Positions 10,666 to 14,853 of a stretch of DNA of 24,000 bases are shown here, in pieces. Source of the DNA: Deltaproteobacteria bacterium (GTDB lineage Bacteria; Desulfobacterota; Desulfobacteria; Desulfobacterales; SURF-15); contig JAFDFZ010000010.1 in assembly GCA_019309565.1 (NCBI GenBank), positions 28,678-52,677 on the forward strand. The letters are read 5' to 3'. Every line of letters starts with the position of its first letter. Position 1 is the stretch's first letter. A program made the position numbers and the translations under genes. The notes beneath the pieces were generated by a model, which was given only the letters and a program-made list of their open reading frames with translations, ran no database searches and was not told the origin of the DNA.

Positions 10666-13600
10666 ATGATTCAATCCAGAGCACTTGAAGAGAATTTGGC
10701 CAGATATCGCGTGGATGTGATTCCCGATCCGAAATACGAAGTGCTCGAGGATATCATGTCCGATTATTATGGGCTGTTGGATGGTCTGCACAGCTTCATA
10801 AAGGAGCTGTCACATCCCTATCGAAACTGGCACCATGTCGTCAAAGAAGCCAGGGGATATGCGCTTAACTATCTACATCTACTGAAAAACCACCCCAGGG
10901 GACCGGAAGCCGCAAAACGCTTCACAGGCATTTTCTTCGAGGCCATACAATCCACCTCGGACATGATGCTGCGAGCTGAGGCAGCGGATAATCTGCTGTT
11001 ATTCATACAAAAACTCATCAAAGAGATGGGATCGGATCTTAAGCGATTCATCCCGATCCTGCAGGAAACCTTCAACCGTATTCGGAACCATGAAGGAGAG
11101 GATTTTTTTCTATTTTTAAAAAGCTATTACAGGCTTAACAGGATGGCAGAACGGTTCGTTTCCGCGACAAGTGAGTCTGTAACGGATTATGAAGCTTTAA
11201 ACCGATTGCTTTTGAAATATTTCAGGGAAACTTACACGTACTGGTTACAGGAAGACGATCCGCAAAGGTGGTTTGAAAATGAAACCGGTGAATTAAGAAA
11301 ATCAGAGAAGCTTTACGATATTTTTTACCCGATCTCTCACGAACACCTCAGGCAGCTTAGTCACAATCTTGAAAGCATATCCGCACAAAGCAGAATCGAA
11401 TCAAAAGAGCTTACCACCGAATTGACTCGGCTGCCCGGATATAACGAAATCGTGGAAAGTTATCGTGTGATCCCCCGCAAGCTTTCTGTAACCGGTGAAA
11501 CAGACCTTGAGAGCAATCGATGGAAGTTGATCTTTGTTTTTCAGATACTCAACATACCGGGGCTTTCCCTTTTGCACGAAGAAGCATTACGGGAAACCAA
11601 CCGAACCTTGTCCGAGCTGATTGGACATGAAGAATCGAGCCAGCGGGAGGAATTGGTTCGAAAAACCTTTTCCATTCTCAAAACTCAAAGCCGTAAGTTT
11701 CCCGATACCGCCCTTAACTGCATGTTCAACATAGGAAAGGCGGTTTATGGAACCGAGGACACTGATTTGATCGATTTCTTCATCGATTCGGTTATTGACC
11801 TCGGATTTCAGCTTCCTCAGGTGGGGGGGGTTGGAGACGACTGGCAGATAAGAGCCAACAGCGCCCATATTTTGAACATCCGCATCTGGCTCAGGTTGAT
11901 TGAACTAAACCCCAAGCTGTCAAAGCGGCTTTTATCAGCGCTGATCGTTTACCTGTCGCTTTGTGGTGTGTTTATCAAGGACACCGATCTGTTTCCAAAA
12001 GACGTCACTGGCTTGCTGAACAGTGAGATCGTGCCTGTCTACAACCTGGTAAAACAGCTTGCAAGGCTGTTTCCGGTTTATTTTAACGATATCGGTGCAG
12101 AGGGACGGTTAAGAGACATATCGACTCGAATAGACGAACTATGCGGACGAAAAGATGTACTGATCCACTTTTTACGCAAGCAGAGCCATGTAGAAAGCAG
12201 CAATCGAATCATCGGGTTCATGGAAGCGACTCTGTATTTCTGGGAGACCAGGGACAAAACACGTCTTCAACCGTATATCCCTCCGGCGATCTACGACCAA
12301 ATCCAAAGCCACGGCCCTTTTATCGATGGTGTTCACAGGACAGTGGCATTGCTGAAGAAACGGGGCGTTTCGCTGCCAAGGGGACTTCTATCTTTCCATG
12401 AGTCTGAGTTACGCTCTATTGCGGGTGATCATCCGGATGTGTCTGAAAACGACCTTGAACGGGTATCACTGGCGATATCGCTGTATAAAATGTTTAATCA
12501 GAAATACAGGCTTGATTTCATCGAGACGGACCAATTCGTCTCTCAATTGAGGCCGGATGTTTTTCCTAAGTTAGACGAACTTAAAGCCGCGCTTGCAGAG
12601 AAAAACCTTAAGAGAAAACTTGATGGCCTGCTTAATTATCTCGATGTGCTGAAAACATTGATTCTTTCACCAAAGACATTTGATATCAGAGAAGATATCT
12701 ATAAAAAGAGACATATTACCGTGGACATCCCATCCATGTACGGTAGTTATCACGAGATGAAGTTTGATGCACTGGGGTTGACCTTCCGGCTGGAGGGCAT
12801 CATTAACGTACTTTTTGAAGAGCTCATCGAAAATATCGACCTTAACCTGATAACGAAAGCAACTTTCTTTCAGGTAAACGACAGGTTAAAGCTATTATAC
12901 AAGGCCCTGAAACTCGATGGGATATTATCGGTTGAAATTGAACGCCAGCTTGAGTTATTAAATCACTCGCTTCAAGTCAGAGGGTTTACCTTCACCCAAT
13001 ATATCGACATTTTCAAAGGTTTTGCCCAGGCAGTAAAAAACATTATCGATGATTATTTCAACAATGTACACGAAAGAAACTTAAAGCGGATCTTATCCAG
13101 ACTCACCTCTGAGCAGATTCTTTCCAAATATCTTCCCGGGGAGAACCATTTTGATAACGAAAGCTTGGAACATCGGGTATCAGAGATATTTTTTCGAGAA
13201 AGAATCGCCATCTCTTTAGGGCTTCAGCAAATGGATCGCTTCCTGAGCCGAATCATCAATACGCTGTTCCAGCAGCTGGACACACTTCCTAATGATAAGT
13301 TGCAGCAGCTTTTGCTTTACGATCCAGAAAGGGCTATGACGCCCATTGATAAAACCGGCAGGCGGGTATCGGGCATTATTCATCTCGGAAACAAGGGACG
13401 CAATCTTGTGAAGCTCAAACAGTATGGTTTGCCCATTCCTCCGGGTTTTATCATTACCACCGAAGTCTTCAGGTGCCGGAACGTCATCAACGCTTACGGT
13501 CCTGCAAAGCAGAATTTTAAAGAGCAGATCACACATCACATCTCCTATATTGAGAAGCTTACCGGCAGTCGTTTCGGTGATCCCAGTAACCCACTGCTTT

Positions 13601-14853
13601 TTTCCGTCAGAAGCGGTTCTTCCATTTCACAACCAGGCATGATGGATACGTTTTTGGATGTGGGAATCAATGAACAGATCGTCTGCGGTATCATCTCCCG
13701 CACCGGTAATAAGTGGTTTGCCTGGGACAATTATCGGCGTTTTCTTCAGTGTTACGGGATGTCTTATGGATTGAACCGGGATGAATTCGATGCGATTATC
13801 GATGATTTCAAACAAAAGCTGGGAATTCCCTTTAAAAGAGATTTTTCAGGGGATCAGATGCAGCAGGTAGCACTCACTTACAAGAAGATGGTTCTTGATT
13901 CCGGCATTGAAATCGAGGAAGATCCGTTCGAGCAGCTTTATTTGATTATCGGAAGAGTATTCGAATCATGGGAATCTGCAAAAGCAAAGGCCTATCGCAA
14001 AATTATGGGTATTTCCGATGATTGGGGCACTGCGGTTACGGTTCAAACTATGGTCTATGGAAATATTTCTCGCCAGTCCGGCTCAGGGGTTCTCTTTACA
14101 CACAACCCTAAGCTGCCGGGTGATACGCTGCGGCTTTGGGGAGATTTTACCATCGGAAATCAGGGTGAAGATGTCGTGGCAGGATTGGTTCGAACACTTC
14201 CCATATCCGTCATTCAGAAGAATTATGAAATGCGACAAACCGATGTGACCCTTCAAACCCATTTCCCGAAGATTTACATGGCGTTAAAAAATTGGGCAAA
14301 CGATTTGATTTACGAGAAAGGCTGGAGTCCGCAAGAGATAGAATTTACCTTTGAGGGCCCTGATGTCAAGGATCTTTACCTGTTGCAGACACGAGACATG
14401 GTCATTAGGGGACAGAAGGATGTATATACCTTTGACCTGGAGGGACAGGAAAAAAGGAGCCTGCTGGGACACGGCATAGGAGTAAGTGGAGGTGCAATGG
14501 TCGGGCGTGTGGTTTTCAGCCTCGAGGAGATCGATCAATGGCGCCATCAGGAACCGGAAACATTCCTGATTCTGGTTCGATCAGACACCGTTCCCGATGA
14601 TATTCAGGAAATATACGCTGCCGACGGCCTTCTGACGGCACGAGGCGGTCTGACAAGTCATGCTGCCGTGGTCGCTCATCGACTGGGTAAAACCTGTGTG
14701 GTTGGATGTGCGGATTTGATCTGCAATGAGAAAAGGAAAGAAGCCGTCTGGAACCGGGTGACATTGAGATCAGGGGACTATATCAGTATCGACGGCCAGC
14801 AAGGAGCAGTCTATTTGGGCCGCTTGAAGGTAAAAAAAGCAAGGCATAGATGA
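10666..14853 (+). CDS. Large (1395 aa) PPDK/PpsA-superfamily protein: unknown ~890-aa N-terminal region, then ATP-grasp nucleotide-binding domain and phosphohistidine swivel domain; no PEP/pyruvate TIM barrel
   Basis: AAGGGAG lies 6 nt upstream of the ATG, and the ORF is a single uninterrupted 4.2-kb reading frame. C-terminal motifs are listed under the two domain features below. Confidence 0.9.
   Translation: [1395 protein letters not shown]
13348..14400 (+). other. PPDK_N-type ATP-grasp (nucleotide-binding) domain of the 1395-aa protein
   Basis: [139 protein letters not shown]. Confidence 0.85.
14467..14850 (+). other. PEP-utilising-enzyme mobile (swivel phosphohistidine) domain of the 1395-aa protein
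   Basis: [15 protein letters not shown]...[49 protein letters not shown]. The conserved His is codon 1332 (nt 14659-14661). The ORF ends 63 codons later. Confidence 0.85.

Follow-up and report, generated by a model that had tools for sequence, protein, structure and literature searches.

Phosphohistidine swivelling chemistry is common to pyruvate, phosphate dikinase (PPDK, EC 2.7.9.1), phosphoenolpyruvate (PEP) synthase (PpsA), Enzyme I of the phosphotransferase system (PTS), glucan-water dikinase and HpeHI/phenylphosphate synthase, with an ATP-grasp domain also present in PpsA and HpeI. Glucan-water dikinase carries N-terminal CBM45 starch-binding modules, and its His domain lies ahead of the nucleotide-binding domain. 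The substrate domain of rifampin phosphotransferase (RPH) is mostly helical. The reaction catalysed by RPH yields AMP, Pi and the phosphorylated substrate (PMC4844700). VadK (Rv1127c) of M. tuberculosis is a barrel-less derivative of PPDK, which uses ATP/Mg to autophosphorylate on His422 and modulates enzymes of the methylcitrate cycle through protein–protein contacts (PMC13400623). The present analysis concerns one gene (the target) in a stretch of 24,000 nucleotides from a Desulfobacterales genome (contig JAFDFZ010000010.1), the whole of which is referred to as the window. Sequence comparison and structural modelling predict that its 1,395-residue product belongs, as a phosphoryl-relay enzyme of three domains, to the "swivelling histidine" superfamily of PPDK and PEP synthase; in it, known relay chemistry is combined with an acceptor domain, an architecture and a strongly supported metabolic context that are all new. 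The target probably encodes an enzyme of central sugar metabolism that has so far gone unstudied. The function tentatively favoured, with slightly less than an even chance of being correct, is that of an ATP-driven His-relay dikinase whose N-terminal domain binds a triose-phosphate acceptor and which works with a co-encoded, specialised glyceraldehyde-3-phosphate dehydrogenase (GAPDH). The first-pass annotation of this DNA would be contradicted by an activity already assigned to such an architecture, but no paper describing the architecture or giving it an activity was found in the literature searched, which covered few subscription journals.

A PPDK-type relay module without the PEP/pyruvate barrel

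The C-terminal half of the target, residues 907–1392 (486 residues), aligned with residues 18–514 of the C. symbiosum PPDK chain at E 3.6e-92 (phmmer, PDB sequences), which puts the PPDK likeness claimed earlier for residues ~895–1395 far above chance. The two proteins (PPDK as in 1KBL) share ~35% identity, the order of the domains, the ATP/Mg/phosphate residues and the TSH motif. Pfam recognised PPDK_N (PF01326, E 4.9e-28) and PEP-utilizers (PF00391), and the motif blocks listed in the first-pass annotation were all recovered where it had placed them (Table 1). Conservation was assessed in 101 homologues, whose N-terminal domains are 28–64% identical to that of the window protein. Residues K910, R982, E1226, Q1241, R1243 and H1332, corresponding to K22, R92, E323, Q335, R337 and H455 of PPDK, are invariant in this set, E1224 (the equivalent of PPDK D321) is nearly so, and within T1330-S1331-H1332 the last two residues are invariant and the threonine nearly invariant. 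The C-terminal half contains ~100 columns conserved at ≥98% across phyla, and the mean top-residue frequency around His1332 is 0.79. The proposed pairing of an ATP-grasp domain with a swivelling histidine is borne out by the retention of the ATP/Mg residues and His1332, and judging by these residues the pair looks catalytically competent.

The most prominent difference from PPDK is the lack of the C-terminal TIM barrel, in place of which the target possesses an 890-residue all-alpha domain at its N-terminus. The PEP-utilizers_C barrel (PF02896) had zero Pfam matches on the target protein, the open reading frame (ORF) ends 63 residues past the swivel histidine, which is indeed residue 1332, and the rest of the protein is predicted to be all-alpha, so that the missing barrel reported earlier is corroborated. 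In addition, the His domain of the target is terminal and attached by one linker, and ~40 residues equivalent to PPDK 340–380 are gone. The NCBIfam models show the C-terminal half to be closest to true PPDK, with no model reaching its own cut-off. The PPDK model TIGR01828 gave 404.8 bits (cut-off 843) and covered only profile positions 18–335 of 865. The VadK-type model NF004531 (PRK05878), made for two-domain proteins of about 490–530 residues, gave 305 bits (cut-off 456). The PEP synthase models TIGR01418 and NF005057, whose barrel is absent from the target, reached 75.7 and 87.7 bits against cut-offs of about 600–740, the RPH model NF041857 31.6 bits (cut-off 999, His domain only) and TIGR01417, the model of PTS Enzyme I with its HPr-binding subdomain, His domain and PEP barrel, 14.7 bits (cut-off 341.7).

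The AlphaFold2 model of residues 201–1395 reached a pLDDT of 88.7 and a pTM of 0.76, values that point to the two halves being packed in a defined way. In Foldseek, its ATP-grasp and His domains were superimposed on PPDK 1KBL, 1DIK and 2DIK with an rmsd of 3.2–3.5 Å over ~540 columns, whereas the same model deviated by 10–14.5 Å from "swivelled" PPDK conformers. The modelled His domain therefore appears to be parked at the ATP site.

The closeness to true PPDK, together with a gluconeogenic gene context (acs genes, a pyruvate:ferredoxin oxidoreductase (PFOR) at one locus, L095, and gap-pgk-tpi genes), might mean that the annotation is functionally right, i.e., that the target makes PEP as a pyruvate dikinase, with pyruvate/PEP binding taken over by a non-homologous helical domain. 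This is considered very improbable. The PEP/pyruvate barrel is absent along with its catalytic residues, the score stays under half of the PPDK equivalog cut-off, and the re-invention of enolate chemistry in an unrelated all-alpha domain would be unparsimonious. Moreover, it is GAPDH with which the gene is tightly linked, and neither enolase nor PFOR. For the target, the name "pyruvate, phosphate dikinase" given in databases is most likely wrong. The names carried by the family, which also include "PEP/pyruvate-binding domain-containing protein" and "PEP-utilizing enzyme", are all automatic.

The architecture is widespread. A word-indexed search with residues 1–890 returned 1333 proteins, and the top 120 matches, from Desulfobacterales and Thermodesulfobacteriota metagenome-assembled genomes (MAGs), are nearly all ~1392 residues long with the same two Pfam domains. 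A phmmer search over 1.84 billion cluster representatives (clusters at 50% identity) found at least 588 clusters at E ≤ 1e-3, 228 of these at E ≤ 1e-30. Named members include Desulfotignum, the cultured Thermodesulfovibrio yellowstonii with its complete genome, other Nitrospirota, Candidatus Delongbacteria, Lentimicrobiaceae and Bacteroidales. Among 46 full-length representatives (1335–1540 residues, N-terminal domains 28–55% identical), 45 carry the full ~500-residue PPDK-like module ending just past the His domain; the other, P0154, matches this module only in part. Because a constant full-length architecture is so widespread, the ORF represents neither two genes nor an assembly artefact nor a decaying remnant, and the earlier claim of a single gene is sustained. 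A decayed or inactive PPDK remnant fused to unrelated sequence, which the missing barrel might bring to mind, as might a relative called at only 784 residues (L093), is scarcely credible. The length of the protein is steady across the 46 representative clusters, both AlphaFold2 models are confident, and the conservation across phyla of ~100 C-terminal and ~60 N-domain columns at ≥98% effectively refutes it. In the L093 locus (CP070746.1, a Desulfobacterales MAG chromosome; 5478–7834), the 784-residue call upstream of the long GAPDH gene contains PPDK_N and PEP-utilizers, and an opposite-strand amidohydrolase gene occupies the place expected for most of the N-terminal domain. This short call stems either from truncation or rearrangement of the copy or from a fault in assembly or gene calling.

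The N-terminal domain and its conserved islands

The N-terminal ~890 residues had been described as having no recognised domain. This was confirmed, since residues 1–890 had no match in Pfam or NCBIfam, a profile built from six diverse N-terminal domains had no match among PDB sequences, and Foldseek returned only generic solenoids. AlphaFold2 modelled residues 1–900 from a 101-sequence alignment with a pLDDT of 87.4 and a pTM of 0.82. The resulting structure is all-alpha, with ~45 helices and a single beta-hairpin (675–682/689–696), and the fold that it gives to the 890-residue domain is predicted with confidence and has no solved relative. The earlier description of the region as L/E/K/F-rich and probably helical holds for its helicity and for leucine and glutamate (14.3 and 8.0%), whereas isoleucine and arginine (7.9 and 7.3%) take the place given to lysine and phenylalanine.

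Several candidate identities of this domain were rejected. The all-alpha prediction excludes a hidden PEP/pyruvate barrel, on which the Pfam, NCBIfam and PDB-profile searches were also silent. A PEP carboxylase-like or HAD-like reading, raised by the size of the region and by the DTD of DTDLF, does not agree with a predicted secondary structure that has no beta-barrel or Rossmann-type core. The Foldseek matches in the PDB were alpha-solenoids (CRM1/exportins and importins) at a TM score of ~0.15 and an rmsd of >30 Å, which is generic solenoid likeness and not kinship. Kinship with the rifampin-binding domain of RPH was likewise set aside, as the RPH entries align through their ATP-grasp and His parts only.

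The conservation of the domain is markedly uneven. Within residues 1–380, only 3 columns are conserved at ≥98% (0.8 per 100 residues), while 30 such columns fall in 381–530 and 15 in 671–720, with ~60 across the whole domain. These islands have 20–30 such columns per 100 residues, against 19 for the C-terminal half with its catalytic residues, and the top-residue frequency of island 1 (0.63–0.79 per 30-residue bin) equals that of the catalytic-His region. The invariant residues of island 1 are H401, D439, D441, K463, E479, R483, T487, D490, D497, R504, K505, H508 and E510, and those of island 2 are E676, K681, R682, H683, S690, G693, Y695, E697, K699, R708 and E710. Ten invariant residues of the domain are basic, which is compatible with a polyanionic ligand. 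Such uneven conservation with charged islands is what would be expected if the enzyme is active and has a third, new site for ligand binding or catalysis.

The position of this third domain sets the target apart from the described systems, as claimed earlier with respect to PPDK/PpsA and RPH: its order is N-terminal domain, ATP-grasp domain, His domain, whereas RPH has its substrate domain placed between the other two. The three-domain logic of the target is that of RPH and PigC/RedH, in which an ATP-grasp and a substrate domain are combined with a C-terminal swivel His domain held by a single tether; beyond the common modules, the target has no sequence or fold likeness to RPH. Unlike glucan-water dikinase, it has the nucleotide-binding domain ahead of the His domain, and no carbohydrate-binding module was matched on it in Pfam. 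The third domains of PpsA, Enzyme I, glucan-water dikinase and HpeHI are a TIM barrel, HPr-binding or CBM45, and their domain order or subunit split also differs. Like VadK, which is encoded near the enzymes on which it acts, the target has lost the barrel, has kept the ATP-binding and His domains and is encoded near metabolic enzymes. However, VadK has ~490 residues and no third domain, whereas the target adds the conserved 890-residue domain and looks like a case of barrel loss independent of VadK.

The main rival to the favoured function, an option missing from the first-pass annotation, is that the target is a VadK-like regulatory kinase, which, once autophosphorylated on His1332, would control the partner GAPDH or the enzymes of the gap-pgk-tpi set, through transfer of the phosphoryl group to a protein residue or through binding that depends on phosphorylation, with the helical domain as a docking scaffold. 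Although it is the strongest of the rivals, this role is itself regarded as unlikely. The only fold likeness of the N-terminal domain is to protein-binding alpha-solenoids, as such a scaffold would have it, but these are the generic matches mentioned above. The ~45 columns conserved at ≥98% in two charge-dominated islands are usual for catalysis or small-ligand binding and not for a docking surface. The C-terminal half, moreover, scores below the cut-off of the VadK-type model and is nearer to true PPDK.

Linkage to a specialised GAPDH and the candidate reaction

The gene context provides the clue to the acceptor. A GAPDH-like gene begins 58 nt past the target stop in the window and is followed by convergent ksgA. 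Among seven close genomic relatives, the GAPDH gene is kept in six of the six with downstream DNA, and a GAPDH gene likewise stands after the target in T. yellowstonii and one Nitrospiraceae chromosome, where the N-terminal domains are merely 30–49% identical. A scan of metagenome contigs with an N-domain profile gave 80 loci, and adjacency was counted on the 63 combined loci whose downstream sequence extends for 1.4 kb or more. In 57 of these 63, the target has a same-strand GAPDH gene no further than ~1 kb away. A "long" GAPDH (405–440 residues, 58–73% identical to that of the window) stands directly downstream on the same strand in 53 loci and 850 bp downstream in one; three loci without it have a standard ~334-residue GAPDH (33–35% identical) directly upstream, and five have no GAPDH. 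Viewed reciprocally, the target precedes all three long GAPDHs sampled independently on large contigs. Clustering of neighbouring ORFs found phosphoglycerate kinase (PGK) in 16 loci, triose-phosphate isomerase (TPI) in 12 and SecG in 8, in orders including gap-TARGET-gapL-pgk-tpiA-secG, TARGET-gapL-gap-pgk-tpiA-secG and a divergent pgk-tpiA. Linkage to GAPDH at this frequency, in two gene orders and across phyla, is hard to attribute to chance or inherited synteny alone.

The first-pass annotation had asked about conservation of both the gap-like gene and the acs operon; the former is conserved across phyla and the latter is lineage-specific. The linkage to GAPDH is deep and occurs in two gene orders. 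Upstream acs genes are present in the window and in its close relatives L001, L002, L006, L007 and L094, and an ACS gene is found upstream in four of the seven close relatives, with only the pterin-binding and DUF3786 genes there in L004. Since the acs linkage is confined to close Desulfobacterales relatives (~10 loci), it was dropped as a functional clue. In L095, a two-subunit 2-oxoacid:ferredoxin oxidoreductase (POR/PFOR alpha and beta, 801–3210) lies just upstream of the target–GAPDH pair and a CdhD-like gene and a ferredoxin gene downstream, forming a compact acetyl-CoA-to-triose-phosphate gene run. The presence of acs genes (window and close relatives) and of PFOR (L095) upstream of the target fits a flow of carbon from acetyl-CoA to triose phosphate.

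The partner looks, from its sequence, like a real phosphorylating GAPDH. It retains the catalytic Cys and His (Cys149 and His176 in type I GAPDH), T179, R231 and the TTTGAA residues of the phosphate site, and SCTTTC, TVHAAT and RIPT are present. It differs in seven family-specific insertions, because of which it scores 325.8 bits against a cut-off of 367 for type I GAPDH (TIGR01534), and in an invariant ETH(T/R)RTA motif. In place of Asp32 stands Gly-Arg, and Arg occupies the position of Leu/Phe187. In known GAPDHs, Asp32 hydrogen-bonds the 2'-hydroxyl of the adenosine of NAD, and S-loop positions 187/188 affect the use of NADP (PMC3728087). Given these roles, the replacements indicate a remodelled cofactor pocket, which is compatible with, and may favour, NADP(H). 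A standard 334-residue GAPDH is encoded beside the long one in many loci, which gives the long GAPDH the look of a specialised isoenzyme that belongs with the target. This long form seems to constitute a GAPDH subfamily of its own, hitherto undescribed.

In the favoured reading, that of a dikinase with a triose-phosphate acceptor, MgATP, probably together with Pi as in PPDK, would first pyrophosphorylate and then phosphorylate His1332 at the ATP-grasp site, with the release of AMP and PPi or Pi. The terminal His domain would then swing on its single linker, as in RPH, and the phosphoryl group would pass to an acceptor held in a putative conserved pocket of the N-domain islands. The gene context suggests that this acceptor belongs to the triose-phosphate segment of glycolysis/gluconeogenesis. 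The specific reaction 3-phosphoglycerate + ATP (+ Pi) → 1,3-bisphosphoglycerate + AMP + PPi (or Pi) is the leading and most economical candidate, although a doubtful one. Its product would be handed to the partner GAPDH during gluconeogenesis from acetyl-CoA, and the route would constitute a thermodynamically pushed bypass of PGK; the reverse direction, forming ATP from AMP and PPi, is equally conceivable. Transfer from phosphohistidine to a carboxylate has precedents in succinyl-CoA synthetase and two-component systems. From textbook free energies, the dikinase route toward 1,3-bisphosphoglycerate is more favourable than PGK by ~15 kJ/mol (PPi formed) to 34 kJ/mol (Pi formed), which would help energy-limited organisms building sugars from acetyl-CoA. 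The most far-reaching version, a 3-phosphoglycerate dikinase with a dedicated, possibly NADP(H)-preferring GAPDH forming an irreversible gluconeogenic bypass of PGK in sulfate reducers, Nitrospirota and other anaerobes, with a new all-alpha fold as its acceptor domain, is unlikely as a whole.

Several points weigh against a triose-phosphate dikinase. The acceptor was assigned from gene order alone. PGK is encoded beside the target in 16 loci, so the target is no stand-in for a missing PGK, and Bacteroidota-type members have no GAPDH neighbour. VadK provides a precedent for a barrel-less PPDK derivative acting as a regulator, and one subclade of the family bears an N-terminal hemerythrin sensor domain, a type of fusion more typical of signalling proteins. 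As for the models, the His domain docks at the ATP site, and the island loops are of low confidence with or without the C-terminal half (N-domain model, then longer model: pLDDT 74 then 77 for 471–480, 60 then 60 for 681–690, around the loop of the hairpin). Loop confidence had been tried as a sign of His-domain docking on the N-terminal domain and was discarded as unchanged between the models, which is explained by the model taking the ATP-site conformer.

The subclade concerned (P0153, P0154 and P0171; up to 1540 residues) carries the extra N-terminal Hemerythrin HHE domain at E 3e-12 to 4e-8, and this fusion suggests an O2, redox or iron sensing input. The operon head of the B. subtilis gap operon is the regulator cggR. 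The regulatory-kinase alternative draws on both facts, as the target similarly heads a gap operon, as well as on VadK (PMC13400623) and on the tight pairing with one dedicated GAPDH paralogue, which has seven family-specific insertions and a His-containing invariant motif. Against it, the invariant residues of the target persist in clades without an adjacent GAPDH.

The same clades bear on another possibility, namely that the target is a dikinase or phosphotransferase acting on a small molecule that has no relation to triose phosphates. The substrate could be a xenobiotic or phenolic compound, as with RPH and HpeHI, or a polymer, as with glucan-water dikinase, and the linkage to GAPDH would be incidental or loose. 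Barrel-less relatives do phosphorylate hydroxyls of diverse compounds (RPH, PMC4844700; HpeHI, PMC12167813), and the Bacteroidota-type clades have no glycolytic neighbour. This is nevertheless judged improbable in view of the GAPDH linkage described above. RPH-type models, moreover, reach only 18–32 bits on the His domain, and Foldseek aligns RPH solely through the ATP-grasp and His parts.

Features of the locus and significance of the family

The coordinates of the features are collected in Table 1. The target protein is 100% identical to P0001 in public MAG data. The 231-nt leader of the gene contained no detected riboswitch or other known RNA, and promoter and terminator scans gave counts no higher than in shuffled sequence. 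For the GAPDH gene, the ORF list gives a GTG start at 14891; the ATG at 14912 (MKLGINGLGRIG) is favoured because of the homologues, the identical public protein P0435 (410 residues) and a GGAG located 10 nt upstream.

Table 1. Features of the target gene and its GAPDH partner (nucleotide positions refer to the window, residues to the target protein)
Feature	Residues	Position	Strand	Basis
Shine-Dalgarno-like AAAGGGAG		10652..10659	+	6 nt 5' of target ATG, direct sequence reading
Whole target gene, 1395 codons + stop		10666..14853	+	ATG start, ORF call
Variable helical (solenoid-like) part of N-terminal domain	1-380	10666..11805	+	AlphaFold2 helices throughout; top-residue frequency 0.40
Conserved island 1	391-512	11836..12201	+	DTDLF 439-443; motifs 469-480, 501-512
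Conserved island 2 with the sole beta-hairpin (675-682/689-696)	661-720	12646..12825	+	Top-residue frequency 0.68-0.73
Helical C-terminal part of N-terminal domain	721-890	12826..13335	+	Invariant Q778, E840, D857
PPDK-type ATP-grasp nucleotide-binding domain (predicted)	~895-1245	13348..14400	+	K910, R982, E1224, E1226, Q1241, R1243; Pfam, NCBIfam, phmmer, Foldseek
GNKGRNL	908-914			Motif block
Motif block	921-935			
Motif block	970-984			
PGMMDT	990-995			Motif block
Motif block	1017-1026			
Motif block	1118-1133			
GEDVVAG	1167-1173			Motif block
LYLLQTRDM	1237-1245			Motif block
Phosphohistidine swivel (PEP-utilizers mobile) domain (predicted)	~1265-1390	14458..14835	+	PF00391, E 4e-19; PDB 2fm4, E 1.6e-25
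Motif block with His1332	1322-1348			
Codon of His1332, TSH motif, predicted phospho-carrier	1332	14659..14661	+	Aligned to PPDK His455
Long GAPDH paralogue, 410 aa		14912..16144	+	ATG 14912, 58 nt past target stop, convergent gene next

Upstream of the target, the window contains an acs/Wood-Ljungdahl cluster (RACo, CdhD-like, acetyl-CoA synthase (ACS), AcsC, pterin-binding protein, DUF3786). The cluster begins with an ORF at 60–1301 (+), comprising an acetyl-CoA hydrolase/transferase C-terminal domain and a GNAT acetyltransferase domain, the N-terminus of which may lie outside the window. The CdhD-like gene at 3550–5106 (+) has a TTG start and encodes 518 residues. The CdhD profile is matched by residues 16–302 only, over 246 of its 387 positions, which leaves ~200 residues at the C-terminus unassigned. 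The DUF3786 gene (9802–10434, +), located between the acs genes and the target, occurs also in L004, L094 and L095 and seems to travel with the acs cluster. At 17780–18166 (+), a 128-residue protein with weak phasin-like and ORF80-like matches is encoded; it is kept upstream of an M16/PreP peptidase in 7 loci.

In L036, L050, L057, L058 and L066, the target stands directly after lptA-lptB-rpoN-hpf-ptsN-rapZ-EIIA(Man-type)-rimI, a nitrogen-PTS/sigma-54 cluster, and RapZ is present in 7 loci. An Enzyme I-like role in the nitrogen PTS was considered and rejected, as the rpoN-hpf-ptsN-rapZ cluster occurs in ~7 loci only and leaves no HPr or Enzyme I slot; no gene for HPr or Enzyme I was seen in the neighbourhoods examined. 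A small MGMT-like gene upstream of the target was also followed and did not recur.

Lower glycolysis is regarded as fully catalogued in bacteria, yet the target heads gap(-pgk-tpiA) operons in environmentally dominant anaerobes. Its hosts include Desulfobacterales, among them relatives of methane-seep partner bacteria, Thermodesulfovibrio and other Nitrospirota, and the family, at least 588 clusters in size, stands under a misleading name without a known function. Under either the metabolic or the regulatory reading, its 890-residue domain is a confident predicted fold with no solved relative. Should the regulatory alternative be correct, with GAPDH as the object of the kinase, the target would be the second, independent case, after VadK, of a PPDK turned into a metabolic regulator. 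If a metabolite of the triose pathway is phosphorylated, as favoured here, the target would bring a new reaction and a new control point of flux direction into central metabolism, and metabolic reconstructions would have to stop counting its gene as PPDK. If that metabolite is 3-phosphoglycerate, the target would be an unrecognised enzyme of core carbon metabolism, analogous to what PEP synthase and PPDK are with respect to pyruvate kinase.

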